Origin: Candidatus Firestoneibacteriota bacterium
GTDB taxonomy: Bacteria; Oederibacteriota; D2-FULL-39-29; JBDRBU01
Assembly (NCBI GenBank): GCA_043822305.1
Contig: JBDRBU010000078.1
Location: 1-43,318 of the forward strand
Reading direction: 5' to 3'
DNA length: 43,318 bases
Shown here piece by piece: positions 12,896 to 17,796 of this stretch (positions within the stretch are counted from its first letter, which is position 1; each line of letters opens with the position of its first letter). The notes beneath the pieces were generated by a model. The model did no database searches. It worked only from the letters and a program-made list of their open reading frames with translations, and was not told where the DNA came from. A program made the translations under genes and the position numbers.

Positions 12896-13276
12896 TTAGT
12901 TTTTCTTTGGTTCTTTAATTGGTTCGGTTTTTAATTTTTCTTCTAAATCTTTTTTATCTACTTCTAATTTGATTTTTTCCATTTCTAATTTTAATACTTC
13001 AATCTCTGACTTTACTTTTTCAACATTTAAGTAGGGTGTTGTATATGGATTAGCAAAGATGATTATAAGGGATACAATAAGAACGTAAATTGCAAGAGAT
13101 TCGATGAGGGCTAATCCTAATATTAACGAGCCTTGTATTGAACCAGCTGCTTCTGGCTGTCTGGCTATTCCTTCTAATGCTTTTGAAGTGGCCCAGCCTT
13201 GTGCAAATGCTGTAAGTATAGAACCGATAGCTATGGCAGCACCGGCTACTATTATAGATACTATAAAGATTGTCAT
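12896..13276 (-). CDS. atpE: ATP synthase subunit c with C-terminal coiled-coil extension
   Basis: ARQPE loop, LIESLAIY ion-binding helix, FANP end followed by 49 extra mostly charged residues. Confidence 0.93.
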
Positions 13277-13342: not shown

Positions 13343-14068
13343 TTAATGTTGTTCGCCAGTTTCTATTGCCCCGGCTATATATACCATTGAAAGTAAAGTA
13401 AATACTAAAGCCTGAATAAAACTTACCAAGACACCAAGTAACATTATAAGAGGTCTCAATATTAGAGGAAACACTGACAGAATTATACCAATTTTAGGTA
13501 TAGAAGAGAAAGCTACAAATAATACAGCAAGTATTCCTAATAATATCTCTTTGGCCATTATGTTTCCAAATAAACGGATTGATAAAGATAAGGGTCTTGC
13601 TAATTCACTTATTATATGAATAGGAAAAAGTATAGGAGATAGCCAGTAAGGCGGCCCTAAAAAATGTTTAAAGTATCGCCATAATCCTTTTTCTTTTATT
13701 CCAAAGTAGTGAATGGAGAAAAATATAATTAAGGCTAGAGATATTGTAACATTTATATTACTGGTTGGAGACTTAAACCCTGGTATTAATCCTATTAAAT
13801 TTGAAAAAAGGATAAACAAAAATAAAGTTATAAATAATGGTAAAAATCTTGGGCCATTTTCTCCCAGAAATTCTTTTGATTTTAAGATAATCCATTCTAC
13901 AATATATTCAACAGCGTTTTGTAATCCAACAGGAGATTTACTTATTTTTCTTTTTGCAAATAAACATAATGTTATAATAATAACCATAACAATCCAGGAC
14001 ATGGTAACCACATCAGGGATTCCGGGTATTTTAATCAAAATTATTTCTTTTAAAACGCCTTCTTCCAT
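13343..14068 (-). CDS. atpB: ATP synthase subunit a
   Basis: SPTSNIN, RPLSLSIRLFGN, IQALVFTLL. Confidence 0.96.
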   Translation of the reverse strand: MEEGVLKEIILIKIPGIPDVVTMSWIVMVIIITLCLFAKRKISKSPVGLQNAVEYIVEWIILKSKEFLGENGPRFLPLFITLFLFILFSNLIGLIPGFKSPTSNINVTISLALIIFFSIHYFGIKEKGLWRYFKHFLGPPYWLSPILFPIHIISELARPLSLSIRLFGNIMAKEILLGILAVLFVAFSSIPKIGIILSVFPLILRPLIMLLGVLVSFIQALVFTLLSMVYIAGAIETGEQH

Positions 14069-14077
14069 AATTACCTT

Positions 14078-14175
14078 GACTTTCCATAATGTAAATAAAT
14101 AATACTTATCCTGTCCCTGAGCCTTGCGAATGGTACAGGGTTAGGAATAGTTGTTCGCCAAAGCGAACAGACTAT
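14078..14175 (-). repeat. 61-bp hairpin element, copy C, carrying a ~36-bp palindromic insertion
   Basis: Matches the 14646-14767 units on both sides of the insertion at ~14105-14140. Confidence 0.8.
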
Positions 14176-14441
14176 GACTTAAAAAACAATCTAAAAGGTG
14201 AAATTAAAGTAACAACAATCAAAGAAACTGCCGTGGCTATAAAAGTTGTTCGACCAAGTAACTTAACGACTAAAATTAAAACACAAGTTAGAATTATAAA
14301 TCTTATTAAGTAACCTATTATGGCGAATTTTCTGCCCTTATTTTTTTCTAAAATTAAAGATTTCTTTACGGTTAAATATAACAAGTAAGAATTAATAATA
14401 CCTGTTAAAACTCCGATAACAATCCCTAATATTATACTCAT
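14172..14441 (-). CDS. atpI: ATP synthase protein I-like membrane protein
   Basis: Hydrophobic 89 aa with YLIR motif, directly upstream of atpB. Confidence 0.7.
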   Translation of the reverse strand: MSIILGIVIGVLTGIINSYLLYLTVKKSLILEKNKGRKFAIIGYLIRFIILTCVLILVVKLLGRTTFIATAVSLIVVTLISPFRLFFKS

Positions 14442-14644
14442 TTTATCTTATTTAATCCACTAAATATGTTTAAAAACCCAGCCATGATTCCTAATATTAA
14501 AAAAATTAAAGTAAAAATTGGAGAAGAGCTAAATAAATCATCTAAAAAAATACCAAAACCAAGTCCAACGAATATAGAAACTACTAATGTCATTCCAATA
14601 CTGCTGGCCCACCCTAATTTAACTAAAGATTTAAAGTCAGTCAT
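14438..14644 (-). CDS. atpZ: AtpZ/AtpI family protein
   Basis: G..LD..F.SSPIF....LILGIMAGF pattern; first gene of the operon. Confidence 0.8.
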   Translation of the reverse strand: MTDFKSLVKLGWASSIGMTLVVSIFVGLGFGIFLDDLFSSSPIFTLIFLILGIMAGFLNIFSGLNKIK

Positions 14645-14645
14645 T

Positions 14646-14767
14646 GACTCTCCATAATGTAATAAATAATATCAGAAATAGTTGGTTCCGAAAGTAACCA
14701 GACTATGACTTCCCATAATGTAAACAAATAATATCAGGAATAGTTGGTTACGAAGTAACCAGACTAT
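14646..14767 (-). repeat. Two tandem 61-bp hairpin elements (copies A and B)
   Basis: 14646-14706 and 14707-14767 are direct repeats. Confidence 0.9.
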
Positions 14768-14834
14768 AAATAATAATAACATAAAGAGAGTGGAAATATC
14801 AATATAAAATTATAATGTCTTTGCCTTTTTAATA

Positions 14835-14863
14835 TTGTATTCTTTAATGAATTATGTTATAAT
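14835..14863 (+). promoter_or_regulatory. Sigma70-type promoter for the micropeptide/pseudopilin operon
   Basis: TTGTAT-17 bp-TATAAT with extended -10 TG. Confidence 0.65.
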
Positions 14864-14889
14864 TTGTAAATCAAAAGGAGGATAACCTT

Positions 14890-14937
14890 ATGTGCGGTTC
14901 TTGTGGATGTTCCAAAAAAACTAAAAAGAAAAAATAA
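14890..14937 (+). CDS. 15-aa Cys-rich basic micropeptide MCGSCGCSKKTKKKK (not in the ORF track)
   Basis: AGGAGG SD at 14876-14881, 8 nt before the ATG; promoter just upstream; stop overlaps the TAAGGA SD of the next gene. Confidence 0.65.
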   Translation: MCGSCGCSKKTKKKK

Positions 14938-14950
14938 GGATATCTTGTAT

Positions 14951-15364
14951 ATGCTTTTAAAGAAAAAAAAGTTGATAATAGGTTTTACACTAATAGAACT
15001 TATGATTGTTGTAGCCGTATTAGGGCTTATTGCTGCTGTGGCCATCCCTAAATTCGGAGAACTTTTAGAGAGAAGCAGGGAAGGCACAACAAAGGGAAAT
15101 ATTGGCGCAATAAGATCTGCTATAGCAGTCTACTATAGTGATAATGAAGGTAAATATCCTGATGACTTTTTATCTTTTAATAAATATTTAGAACCAATAC
15201 CGAGTGCAAAGGCAACTCCTTTGGGGAATACAAATGCTATTACTCTACAAGCAGGTATTCCAACTTCAGCCGGTGTTGGCTGGTCATATGATAGTGATAC
15301 TGGTGAAACTTGGTGCAATAGTACCGCGTTAGATACACGGGGAGTTTCATTTACAAGTTATTAA
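14951..15364 (+). CDS. Type IV pilin / GspG-like pseudopilin
   Basis: Basic leader followed by G|FTLIELMIVV prepilin cleavage motif; ATG 14951 has an SD, unlike the listed GTG at 14903. Confidence 0.88.
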   Translation: MLLKKKKLIIGFTLIELMIVVAVLGLIAAVAIPKFGELLERSREGTTKGNIGAIRSAIAVYYSDNEGKYPDDFLSFNKYLEPIPSAKATPLGNTNAITLQAGIPTSAGVGWSYDSDTGETWCNSTALDTRGVSFTSY

Positions 15365-15396
15365 TATAAAAACAAAATATAAAAGGAGGTAAATTT

Positions 15397-16080
15397 ATGC
15401 CAGAAAATATGAGTTTATTGCAGGCAATAGGTAGAAATGTTTGGGCATTACTTACTATTGCGGTTTTAATAGTTTGTTCATTTTTATCAGTATATTTTAT
15501 GATAGAAAGGTTTTTAAGATATAAAAAAGCAAAAATAGATACAACACATTTGCTTGGTAAAATTAGAAGGATATTAATTAAAAATGGGAAGTTTAACAAA
15601 ACGAACATTCCTCAAGCATTAGATTTATGTAAAGAGACAAGAGGTCCAGTTGCTGTTACTTTAATGGCTGGATTAGTAAAATTCTCATGTCCAAAAGAGG
15701 AAATAGAAGACAACATGCAAAAAACTGCATTAGAAGAAGTTTCTAAATTAGAGCAAAATCTTGTAGTAATTGGAAGTATTGGAAGCGTTGCTCCATTTAT
15801 AGGATTACTTGGAACAGTTATTGGTGTAACGGAATCTTTTATGAGATTATCATCCATGGGAGGTGGAGGGATAAATGTAGTTGGCGCAGGTATAGCTCAG
15901 GCATTAGTTGCGACTATTATAGGATTATTTGTAGCCATCCCTGCGGTTGTTGGCTATAACATTCTTATCCGCATGGTAAACAATTTTTCTACCGAGATGA
16001 CAACAAGTTCAGTAGAACTTATAAGTATTATCACGACAAAAAGTATTGGGAAAGAAGACTTAGAAGAAACAAAGGAGTAA
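15397..16080 (+). CDS. MotA/TolQ/ExbB proton channel protein
   Basis: APFIGLLGTVIG, GIAQALVAT..GLFVAIPA. Confidence 0.93.
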   Translation: MPENMSLLQAIGRNVWALLTIAVLIVCSFLSVYFMIERFLRYKKAKIDTTHLLGKIRRILIKNGKFNKTNIPQALDLCKETRGPVAVTLMAGLVKFSCPKEEIEDNMQKTALEEVSKLEQNLVVIGSIGSVAPFIGLLGTVIGVTESFMRLSSMGGGGINVVGAGIAQALVATIIGLFVAIPAVVGYNILIRMVNNFSTEMTTSSVELISIITTKSIGKEDLEETKE

Positions 16081-16083
16081 TTC

Positions 16084-16500
16084 ATGATAAATCTAAATAA
16101 AGAAAGAAAAGTATTCTCAGAGATAAATATTACCCCTTTAACAGATGTGGCCTTAGTCCTTCTCATTATATTTATGATTACGGCCCCACTAATAATGCAG
16201 TCCGGTATAAAAGTAAAACTGCCTGGAGCAGTAACATCAGATTTTTCGCCAGAGAAAAATATTATCTTAACTATCCCCGCGGATGGAAAGGTATATCTGG
16301 GTAATCAGGAGATTGCTTTAAAAGATTTATTTGAGCCGATGGCTGCTTTACTTGCTATTAGCCAAACTAAAATTGTAGTAATAAATGCCGATAAAGATGT
16401 TGCGCATGGTATTGTTGTTTCTGTCCTTGATATAGCCAGGCAGGCTGGTGCAGAAAAATTATTTGAATCTACCGAGCATAAAGAACTGATTAAAAAGTAA
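16084..16500 (+). CDS. ExbD/TolR family protein
   Basis: EINITPLTDVALVLLIIFMITAP with the conserved Asp. Confidence 0.93.
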   Translation: MINLNKERKVFSEINITPLTDVALVLLIIFMITAPLIMQSGIKVKLPGAVTSDFSPEKNIILTIPADGKVYLGNQEIALKDLFEPMAALLAISQTKIVVINADKDVAHGIVVSVLDIARQAGAEKLFESTEHKELIKK

Positions 16501-16545: not shown

Positions 16546-17796
16546 ATGATAATGGATAAGATTTCTAAAATATCGTTTTTTATAACTTTAATTGGACATA
16601 CTATTATTGTGGTCGCAGTTGGAATTATTATATCCATGCCAGCAAAAGAATATATACCTTTAGTTGAAATTAGTTTAGTAAATCTTCCAAAAAAACTCAC
16701 AGAAGGAATTAATTTGCCAGGCGGACCATCTGAGGGAACGAAGGAAAAAATTCAACAACCTAAATCGACAGAAAGTTTACTTCCTCCTTCAGAAGTGGGA
16801 GTTACTCAGGATGTTGGATTAATTAACTCTATAGATATAGTTGGAAGTGGTGTTGCCAAAAATTTATTTTTTAGAGAAGGAAAAGTTGCTGGATTTTCAT
16901 TTACTGGTAGTGGAATTCGCAAGGCAAAACCAGATAATGTTTTTATTAAATTTTCTGTAATATCTGATATCTCAAATACTTTAAGGGCAGCAGAGATAAG
17001 CATAGGAAGAAAAATAGATTTTGTAATATACAATGTAGGAAGACGGCTTTCTATAAAAAAAGAAGATTTTAAAGTAACAGCACCTAAACTACAGATGATA
17101 GAACAGGTTATAAAGGCACCATCATCAGATGATAAAGGAGGTTCTTCAAAAAAAGAGCATAAGTATACAATTGCAAAGAATATCATCGTAAATAATCTTG
17201 GTAATAGGAAATTAGTAGATATATGCGAAATCATTGATATGGCTATTAATTATGGAGCAGTGGCTATATCTCAAACTTCTGCTGATAATCCAAGTTGGGT
17301 ACAAAGTTCAAAAGCATTAGGAGAAAAAAATTCATCTGTTTCATCATCACGAGGAATGCCAAAAACAAATGTAGATTTTGAGATGCAATCACCTTCAAAT
17401 GAACTTATAAATTATTATCTTAAGGCGGAAACATTTGAAAGAATGATAAAAGAAGCGAAGGATGAAGCATTACAGGATGCAAAAAAACAGGTTGAGAATG
17501 TAAAAAAAGTACTACATTTTGATGAGAAAGAAATGGAAATAAAATTTGATGAAAGTACTTCTACTTTAATAAGCGAAGAGGATGAAATAGTAGTAAAGGT
17601 TGATGTTACGGCAGTTCTTTATAGACCTAAAAAATCAGAGAAAGATGTTGAGTTAGAAGAATTCTGGACGGAAAAAAAGACTCAAGAAAACGAAAAGAGA
17701 ATGAAAGAGATTATGAATAATATAGAGAATATTAAAAAAGATGTTAAAGATATGAATGTGAAAGAGAAGGTAGATTCAGTTGAAGAAGGGGAGTAA
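16546..17796 (+). CDS. TonB/TolA-like anchored protein with a SIMPL(DUF541)-like domain
   Basis: TM helix with TxxxH; FTGSG...KPD and EAKDEALQDAKKQVE patterns resemble SIMPL. Confidence 0.55.
   Translation: MIMDKISKISFFITLIGHTIIVVAVGIIISMPAKEYIPLVEISLVNLPKKLTEGINLPGGPSEGTKEKIQQPKSTESLLPPSEVGVTQDVGLINSIDIVGSGVAKNLFFREGKVAGFSFTGSGIRKAKPDNVFIKFSVISDISNTLRAAEISIGRKIDFVIYNVGRRLSIKKEDFKVTAPKLQMIEQVIKAPSSDDKGGSSKKEHKYTIAKNIIVNNLGNRKLVDICEIIDMAINYGAVAISQTSADNPSWVQSSKALGEKNSSVSSSRGMPKTNVDFEMQSPSNELINYYLKAETFERMIKEAKDEALQDAKKQVENVKKVLHFDEKEMEIKFDESTSTLISEEDEIVVKVDVTAVLYRPKKSEKDVELEEFWTEKKTQENEKRMKEIMNNIENIKKDVKDMNVKEKVDSVEEGE

Follow-up and report, generated by a model that had tools for sequence, protein, structure and literature searches.

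A 15-codon open reading frame ahead of a pilin gene may encode a metal-binding micropeptide with a HypB-type cysteine motif

The contig JBDRBU010000078.1 of a Candidatus Firestoneibacteriota bacterium (assembly GCA_043822305.1), which was analysed over its whole length of 43,318 nt and is called the window here, carries a micro-open reading frame (micro-ORF) of 15 codons immediately upstream of a pilin gene. Its predicted product begins with the cysteine motif that forms the N-terminal nickel site of HypB. With moderate confidence we interpret the micro-ORF as a genuine gene that is translated into a metal-binding micropeptide, in which a HypB-type site is joined to a lysine tail. As far as 15 residues allow a check, it appears in every feature to fit an undescribed micropeptide family under selection. 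The members of this family, which are scattered and unannotated through both Bacteria and Archaea, conform to MC-x-[T/S]-CGC-x-KK with a tail of lysine, arginine and proline (K/R/P) and measure 10-27 residues.

The micro-ORF occupies positions 14890-14937 of the forward strand, where the codons ATG TGC GGT TCT TGT GGA TGT TCC AAA AAA ACT AAA AAG AAA AAA TAA specify MCGSCGCSKKTKKKK and a stop. The start of the peptide, MCGSCGC, has the arrangement M-C-x-[T/S]-C-G-C, residues 9 and 10 are both lysine, as in the family consensus M-C-x-[TS]-C-G-C-x-K-K, and in the SKKTKKKK tail six of the seven residues from position 9 onwards are lysine. A Shine-Dalgarno (SD) sequence, AAGGAGG (14876-14882, +), lies at a proper distance, 7 nt 5′ of the ATG. 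Further upstream is the extended −10 element TGTTATAAT (14855-14863, +), consisting of a perfect TATAAT (14858-14863) and a TG extension (14855-56); the identical element stands 5′ of a paralogous pilin gene on contig C83 of the same genome. The −35-like hexamer TTGTAT (14835-14840, +) is placed 17 nt before the −10 element. Because it fits TTGACA at only 3/6 positions, the promoter fell below the threshold of our consensus promoter scan and was not listed by it (the scan gave 7 promoter-like sites in all, against 5.6 ± 2.4 in shuffled sequences). At the other end, the TAA stop (14935-37) forms part of TAAGGA, a weak SD sequence 10 nt before the pilin ATG at 14951, and so overlaps the degenerate ribosome-binding region of the pilin gene (TAAGGATATCTT, 14935-14946, +); paralogues in related genomes (loci L189, L196 and L208) have GGAGGTGATATCT 5′ of their ATG. 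The distance from stop to pilin ATG is 13 nt, and the pilin gene is in the +1 frame relative to the micro-ORF. No Rfam model matched within positions 13500-16500. An initial annotation of this DNA had described a 15-residue ORF with a promoter and an SD sequence before the pilin gene, and a stop overlapping the pilin SD, and the sequence agrees with it on each of these points. The micro-ORF is very probably translated.

The genome to which the window belongs (2.15 Mb, 31.6% G+C, 96.8% complete) contains one match to MCxxCGCxKK, that of the micro-ORF, and none when the pattern is read backwards as a control. By our own arithmetic from the G+C content, about 1.3 × 10⁻⁴ matches are expected on both strands, a figure that speaks against a chance ORF inside a 5′ untranslated region. 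Lysine codons are common in such AT-rich sequence, and 428 ORFs of 8-40 aa do lie behind a strong SD in this genome. However, only 7 of the 428 have two or more cysteines among their first nine residues, and the micro-ORF is the only one that combines three cysteines with a basic tail. As it also matches the family at the free position 4, in its tail, in its length and in its SD sequence, we regard an origin by chance as very improbable.

The family was delimited by scanning one genome per species, 185,579 species genomes in total, with the degenerate DNA form of MCxxCGCxKK; the resulting counts are lower bounds. At least 118 distinct matches were obtained. We called a match family-like when its ORF was 10-27 aa long, an SD-like 5-mer stood at −20 to −4 and K/R/P made up at least 60% of the tail, and 46 of the 118 qualify among the matches listed, to which the figures in the remainder of this paragraph also refer. 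The 46 measure 10 aa (10 ORFs), 11 (2), 12 (11), 13 (6), 14 (9), 15 (1), 17 (2), 18 (1), 19 (2), 20 (1) and 27 (1). Position 4, which the pattern leaves free, is threonine in 32 and serine in 11, or 43/46 together. For ORFs of 10-31 aa, K/R/P residues make up on average a fraction of 0.95 of the tail when an SD sequence is present (n = 47) and 0.57 when it is absent (n = 24). By record title, the 46 comprise Omnitrophota (11), Methanocellaceae (9), Planctomycetota (6), DPANN archaea (5), records labelled Deltaproteobacteria (5), Patescibacteria (1) and others (9, including Sumerlaeia and Dehalococcoidia). Examples are MCDTCGCGKKPK, MCATCGCRKKKPKK, MCNTCGCGKK, MCGSCGCGKKKPKK and MCGSCGCSKKKAKKKKK, the last of which, from a Pacearchaeota record, is the closest to the window peptide. 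Some of the other matches, named by eye, belong to HypB-like proteins that continue with His-rich sequence, others are zinc-finger or radical-SAM stretches inside long proteins, and the rest are random occurrences.

Selection on the peptide itself is indicated by the Methanocellales. To avoid the bias of fixed residues, these genomes were searched with a full 12-codon degenerate pattern and three mismatches allowed. MCD[T/S]CGCGKKPK was found in 13/15 genomes, in exactly one copy each and always with no mismatch, whereas the backwards control gave nothing. The 13 copies vary at synonymous third positions of most codons, the sole non-synonymous change being the exchange of T and S at residue 4 in one genome, and TAA, TAG and TGA are all used as stops. 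Each copy follows a G-rich SD sequence, mostly GGAGGTGA, many precede G+C-rich hairpins, and the flanks are otherwise unalignable. Synonymous variation between unalignable flanks indicates that the 12-mer is a protein-coding gene under purifying selection. The initial annotation had named an absence of conservation as grounds for giving up the peptide; as a conserved family exists, that objection falls.

In a sample from one large phylum whose records bear the label Omnitrophota, the strict pattern matched 9 of 401 genomes and the control none. All nine matches are ORFs of 12-19 aa behind purine-rich, mostly SD-like stretches, and three of them begin MCGSCGC. Most members of the family stand alone, many with a terminator-like hairpin behind them and no close co-directional gene. 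At the 45 family-like loci with enough flanking sequence, the 60 nt 3′ of the stop fold at a mean of −14.8 kcal/mol, compared with −11.6 kcal/mol for a 60-nt upstream control, which is a modest effect (Wilcoxon p = 0.026).

A consistent gene neighbour was sought for the family and the idea was dropped, as Pfam assignments for 130 ORFs (at least 125 residues, within 900 nt) at 30 family loci gave varied neighbours. Among them are PAC2, KH and RIO1 proteins (in Methanocella), argB and argD, AhpC plus SOD, MsrAB, rubrerythrin, an LTXXQ metal-resistance protein, eRF1, an RRM protein, TilS and others. Oxidative-stress or metal genes stand beside the peptide at four loci, too few to build on. At four loci, whose genomes carry the label Omnitrophota or Planctomycetia, the micro-ORF follows an argB-like gene and stands 15-25 nt ahead of an argD-like one. 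Pfam supports this arrangement for L073 and L075; for L161 and L162 it was read by eye from the same kind of start, which comes 15-20 nt after the micro-ORF stop. Operon-internal copies therefore exist elsewhere too.

Three further observations concern individual family loci. One metagenome-assembled genome, ‘bacterium DX1.bin10’, has two different micropeptide genes, encoding MCDTCGCNKKKKP and MCETCGCKKKKKE (L048 and L071), each after a gene for an HTH_10 regulator, and one of them is near a PAC2-family gene, as in Methanocella. A 98-aa ORF of an Acutalibacter record (L105) begins MCQECGCQKK and resembles by eye a CsoR/RcnR-type metal-sensing repressor, so that the MCxxCGC N-terminal motif may also occur on proteins other than HypB. 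Finally, six loci with the 10-residue ORF MC[NK][TS]CGCGKK (L109, L115, L131, L144, L148 and L141) share a conserved 5′ leader of about 75 nt, …CCACCTTTCrGCGCaTCC..GCATCcAAtG…GGGGGTGGCGAC-ATG, whose predicted helices pair with the SD sequence and the start codon. Of the 18 pairs predicted from the six sequences, only 1 shows a compensatory change, and when eleven loci from the subgroup with 10 residues were compared with Rfam, nothing emerged except two microRNA matches, both well under the gathering score, which we take as chance. This leader could act as a translational switch for the peptide.

The function that we propose is borrowed from a nickel site that has been studied in depth and has an identical motif. 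According to one report, the N-terminal amine, Cys2, Cys5 and Cys7 of the HypB CxxCGC motif form a square-planar site for Ni(II) of picomolar affinity, and small peptide maquettes of the motif respond to or bind Ni(II) and Zn(II) (PMC12284835). In the micropeptide, removal of Met1 would likewise leave the free amine of Cys2 and the thiolates of Cys2, Cys5 and Cys7 as a metal site of the HypB type, and the lysine tail might hold the peptide on an anionic surface, for example the inner membrane leaflet or nucleic acid. The metal would be nickel, zinc, cobalt or copper. The initial annotation had equated the N-terminal motif with that of HypB, and this identification is sound: the three cysteines occupy positions 2, 5 and 7, and HypB prefixes are the only profiles that responded to members of the family. 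For profile and protein-set searches, relatives of 20-31 residues were used in place of the 15-mer. With these, NCBIfam returned only weak matches, all to HypB_prefix_1 or HypB_prefix_2 and none reaching the cut-off (17.5 bits at best, where 30 is required), and Pfam returned none for three members of 20, 27 and 31 residues. The same three members are absent from about 15 billion predicted proteins. Full-text literature searches yielded no description of such peptides, and the papers on CXXCGC concern, by their listing, HypB or unrelated matters. The window peptide has the N-terminal site of HypB and, at 15 residues, lacks its SIMIBI-class GTPase domain (TIGR00073).

Several observations weigh against a metal-binding micropeptide of this kind. 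The family pattern was derived from the window peptide, so that 7/15 of its residues are fixed by construction and the independent features are limited to position 4, tail, length and SD sequence. Under the strict pattern the family is sparse outside the Methanocellales (the 9/401 genomes mentioned above), and in the window’s own phylum the pattern occurs in 1/99 genomes, namely that of the window itself. The only closer relative recovered, a metagenome contig (L183), has no micro-ORF at the same locus. Polybasic leaders with three cysteines occur on paralogous pilins, as described below, and would offer the peptide another origin. As regards context, the window’s genome gave no match to HypB (TIGR00073) and has no [NiFe] hydrogenase large subunit, the weak match to the latter being NuoD of complex I within nuoBCDH. 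Of five other peptide-bearing genomes, two have HypB and three do not, the latter being an Omnitrophota genome of 1.9 Mb, a Nanoarchaeia genome of 0.8 Mb and a Paceibacterota genome of 0.9 Mb. The HypB pathway is therefore not the context of the peptide, and its presence in genomes of 0.8-0.9 Mb argues against a nickel-specific role.

These absences also bear on the idea that the peptide supplies the N-terminal nickel site in trans to a HypB that lacks it. A Methanocella sp. (the genome of L104) would suit such an arrangement, since it has the 12-mer and a HypB that begins MHKIQVNVG… with no CxxCGC, and the sole profile resemblance of the family is to the HypB prefix. But the organism of the window has neither HypB nor the hydrogenase large subunit, and its HypA is found only below the cut-off, in a frame with 5 stops. 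With HypB missing from three of the five other carriers, the arrangement cannot be general. In E. coli, moreover, the motif without the rest of the N-terminal extension fails to support hydrogenase maturation, according to the report cited above (PMC12284835). We consider complementation of HypB in trans highly unlikely.

Nickel itself has a place in this organism. The catalytic subunit of a Ni,Fe-CO dehydrogenase is encoded in the genome (TIGR01702, 719.8 bits against a cut-off of 478), and upstream of its gene lie two MinD/ParA-like ATPase genes and two small ORFs (contig C52, 4983-9196; L216, 484-4697). The ATPases could be CooC-type nickel insertases. A cobalt/nickel transporter of the energy-coupling factor class, CbiM-CbiN-like-CbiQ-CbiO, is present on contig C53 (5381-8256; L217), and no NicO permease was found in the genome. 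The organism thus has at least one nickel enzyme yet no Hyp proteins, and nickel is a possible metal, for which CO dehydrogenase would be the client in this genome. Buffering of zinc, cobalt or copper fits the distribution of the family at least as well, and so does a role in thiol redox.

At the window locus the micro-ORF is the first cistron of a transcript that runs into the pilin gene and probably into the genes for ExbB and ExbD. The pilin gene (14951-15364, +) encodes a prepilin-type protein of 137 aa with the leader MLLKKKKLIIG followed by FTLIELM (PF07963; TIGR02532, 25.9 bits against a cut-off of 16.3). The scan for terminators revealed no such site between micro-ORF and pilin gene or between pilin gene and ExbB. 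Because the latter gap is only 33 nt and holds no terminator, read-through into ExbBD is likely in this genome. The micro-ORF and the pilin gene are probably coupled in translation as well, since the stop precedes the pilin start by 13 nt, and termination followed by re-initiation 13 nt downstream would be the simplest account.

Such coupling opens the possibility that translating the 15 codons matters and the peptide does not, the micro-ORF being a regulatory upstream ORF (uORF). Ribosomes that end at the TAA might re-initiate 13 nt further on or might open the weak pilin ribosome-binding site, and the output of pilin (and ExbBD) might track the translation of a Cys/Lys-rich sequence, for instance by sensing charged tRNA-Cys or tRNA-Lys or by stalling on the lysine run. 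The disposition of signals favours such a device: it is the micro-ORF that has the strong SD, and the pilin gene has only TAAGGA, which the micro-ORF stop overlaps, where its paralogues have GGAGGTGA. In the minimum-energy fold of the predicted 5′ end, the start region of the micro-ORF (GGAUAACCUUAU) pairs with the pilin ribosome-binding region (AUAAGGAUAUCU), and the four copies 15-25 nt before argD-like genes provide parallels. That fold, however, is no better than those of shuffled sequences (z = −0.98; 38/200 shuffles fold as well), and the scan showed neither a terminator nor an antiterminator between the ORF and the pilin gene. Nor would a device of this kind explain why most members of the family stand alone, many with a hairpin behind and no close co-directional gene, or why the Methanocellales keep the amino-acid sequence beyond codon content. 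We judge a purely regulatory uORF to be unlikely; regulation by the micro-ORF is in any case compatible with a functional peptide.

The pilin gene also provides a possible source for the micro-ORF. Homologues of the window pilin with 50-63% identity occur in 12/12 genomes of the order, several in each, and most have short ordinary leaders (MLKKKG, MLKSKKG or MRNKKG) behind GGAGGTGA. The closest paralogue in the window’s genome (contig C83, about 17045-17100, −), which is 55% identical by tblastn and 57% in the order-wide comparison, starts MGCCEKKGKKGKKGKKG|FTLIE and sits behind TTGACA-17-TGTTATAAT and AAGGAGG. Paralogues in four other genomes (G001, G003, G005 and G009) have the leader MGCCCKK[A/M]KKSKKG|FTLIE. 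A pilin leader of three cysteines and a polybasic remainder thus seems to be conserved in the order, in a group that spans five genomes (C83 and loci L194, L198, L200, L201 and L203), and to resemble the micro-ORF product in size and composition. We know of no description of Cys-rich prepilin leaders, although no literature search was aimed at them. A scan of all species for MCxxCGC followed by GFTLIE at 45-75 nt gave two matches, of which one is a chance match, out of frame inside a HypB-like gene, and the other is in frame, in a Saccharibacteria pilin with the leader MCKTCGCMNKKYVKKTVKKSSRG|FTLIE (L215, 601-684, −). Peptides of this type can therefore serve as pilin leaders. At a spacing of 12-42 nt the same scan, over genome contigs of all species, gave no match, and no prepilin motif was found in an ORF near other members at the 118 loci among the matches listed (a pattern match at L086 is not an ORF). 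A recurrent connection between the peptide and pilin leaders, new and unexplained, is possible.

The micro-ORF could on these grounds be a relic or offshoot of a Cys-rich polybasic pilin leader, cut off by a stop and a change of frame and still translated through the promoter and SD that it kept, with no function of its own. The initial annotation had allowed for something similar, the N-terminal relic of a longer gene. Besides the leaders of the C83 paralogue and its four counterparts, and the in-frame Saccharibacteria example, it is consistent with a relic that the micro-ORF starts behind promoter and SD where those pilin genes start, and that the window pilin is in the +1 frame. The micro-ORF is nevertheless no pilin leader at present, ending at its own TAA while the pilin starts from an ATG of its own. 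The leader of that pilin, MLLKKKKLIIG, is complete and of the ordinary type, comparable to MLKKKG or MLKSKKG in paralogues, and GATATCT, a remnant of the ribosome-binding region of the paralogues, lies downstream of the micro-ORF stop; the micro-ORF therefore lies outside the ancestral pilin gene. Its cysteines are spaced exactly C-x-x-C-G-C with serine at position 4, as in the free-standing family, whereas the leaders have a contiguous CCC. Joining the two frames would produce a leader of 31-39 residues, about twice the length of those of the paralogues. When the region was aligned locally, as DNA, with the upstream sequences of nine paralogues, no score surpassed the highest among 200 shuffles. 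We consider a relic quite unlikely: the pilin’s own leader, the GATATCT remnant, the cysteine spacing and the alignments all count against it.

A frameshift joining the micro-ORF to the pilin was also considered; a −1 shift on the A-runs misses the pilin frame, and a +1 shift at AAA-TAA would reach it, with nothing to support it.

The proximity of ExbB and ExbD had led the initial annotation to a TonB-type system, and here comparison with relatives disagrees. Orthologues of ExbB (48-59% identity) are found in all 11 other genomes of the order. In 11/11 of these relatives, ExbB is preceded by a conserved ORF about 158 residues long (156-166 at ten loci; that of L018 is cut by the locus end), which resembles DUF192 by eye, and in none of the 11 does the pilin gene or the micro-ORF take that place. 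A search based on ExbB recovered no nearer relative among genome contigs and one among metagenome contigs, L183, in which ExbB is 77% identical and the same four genes follow. There, an ORF of 611 residues ends about 130 nt before ExbB, a promoter-like stretch TTGACA…TAAAAT lies between, and neither pilin nor micro-ORF precedes ExbB. None of the 130 Pfam-searched ORFs at the 30 family loci is ExbB, ExbD or TonB. From gene order, micro-ORF and pilin appear to be a unit placed before an older ExbBD operon in this lineage only; read-through into ExbBD is not a conserved design, and the ExbBD neighbourhood of the micro-ORF is local and probably accidental.

The same comparisons bear on the proposal of a metallophore, that is, a nickel- or copper-binding peptide that would be secreted and then re-imported through a TonB-dependent route, with the neighbouring ExbBD as the source of energy. 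ExbB and ExbD do adjoin the micro-ORF, two TonB-dependent receptors are encoded in the genome, and the CGSC stretch of the peptide resembles the core of methanobactin. On the other side, the peptide has no signal peptide and the operon no exporter, and the genome has no MbnB/TglH-type enzyme (PF05114, 0 matches). Neither receptor is in the window, one of them being beside another ExbB paralogue on contig C68, and none of the 12 relatives examined, nor any other family locus, shows the link to ExbBD. A metallophore is in our view extremely unlikely. The interpretation of the initial annotation is thus supported in part: ORF, SD, position and motif stand, and a tie to ExbBD and TonB or a secreted metallophore is not supported.

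The remaining genes of the locus can be described briefly. The ExbB/TolQ/MotA-family channel protein (15397-16080, +; PF01618, E = 1.6 × 10⁻³⁰) and the ExbD/TolR-family protein (16084-16500, +; PF02472, E = 2 × 10⁻²⁷) are followed by a protein of 416 aa (16546-17796, +) with an N-terminal stretch that is hydrophobic by eye. The latter has no Pfam match over the cut-off and no NCBIfam match, and is kept after ExbD in the closest relative, L183, as a protein of 395 aa. Upstream of the micro-ORF, in opposite orientation, is an F-type ATP synthase operon, in which the ORF of the c subunit (12896-13276, −) has 126 residues and, by eye, a Lys/Glu-rich C-terminal extension of about 50 residues past the usual two-helix hairpin. 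Between this operon and the micro-ORF promoter, at 14661-14775, a unit with a hairpin (…TAGTTGGTTNCGAAAGTAACCAGACTA…) is repeated twice in tandem at a spacing of 61-62 nt. This region has a stable predicted fold (z = −3.0; 0/200 shuffles equal it). As more than 20 other contigs of the genome have the unit in whole or in part, it is a dispersed repeat resembling repetitive extragenic palindromes and no local operator.

A free-standing site of one amine and three thiolates on a polylysine anchor, in 10-20 residues, might be an ancient and overlooked component of metal handling that is shared by lineages as far apart as methanogens, DPANN archaea and Patescibacteria. On more than one occasion, type IV pilins might have adopted it as their cytoplasmic leader. 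We offer this wider picture tentatively. If it were true, these peptides would be among the smallest conserved functional proteins known; and if they are made and bind metal, they would constitute a class of metal chaperones or buffers that is new, very small in size and absent from annotation. The family would have been overlooked because gene callers drop ORFs of such length. Cultured Methanocella would provide an experimental handle, through a 12-residue, single-copy gene that is nearly universal in its order. The TonB-type link that gave the locus its initial appeal is local and probably accidental, and the link that recurs is the one to pilin leaders.

Compared with known systems, the micropeptide stands closest to the N-terminal site of HypB (CTTCGC in E. 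coli), in which Met1, Cys2, x, T/S, Cys5, Gly6 and Cys7 are at the same places. Unlike HypB, it has no GTPase domain or further N-terminal extension, the whole product being 10-27 residues with a K/R/P tail, and some of the genomes that encode it have no HypB. Bacterial metallothioneins and small metal chaperones such as SmtA and CopZ are small cytoplasmic proteins that bind metal through thiolates, as we propose for the micropeptide, but they are three to five times longer, folded and built on other cysteine patterns, and no sequence relation to it was found (Pfam matched none of three members). The methanobactin precursor MbnA is a short, gene-encoded, Cys-rich peptide whose product is taken up by a TonB-dependent route, and like the micropeptide it is encoded near genes of a TonB system. 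The micropeptide differs from it in having no leader-core layout, no MbnB or MbnC, and no receptor or exporter in its operon; with no PF05114 match in the genome and pilin, ExbB and ExbD as neighbours, the locus does not resemble that of a methanobactin-type ribosomally synthesized and post-translationally modified peptide. Mycobacterial polycysteine uORFs are Cys-rich leader attenuators and, like the micro-ORF, very short ORFs before an operon; here, by contrast, the downstream genes are unrelated to cysteine, no attenuator structure was found, and the family mostly stands alone. The prepilin leaders, MGCCCKKxKKSKKG in the order and MCKTCGC…RG in Saccharibacteria, share with the micropeptide a size of 14-23 residues, three N-terminal cysteines, richness in lysine and a position before a GFTLIE pilin. 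They differ in that the micropeptide has its own stop and another frame, the pilin behind it keeps a leader of its own, and the leaders of the order have CCC in place of CxxCGC. A prepilin peptidase is encoded in the window’s genome, and its cleavage of the three-cysteine leaders would free a very similar cytoplasmic peptide.

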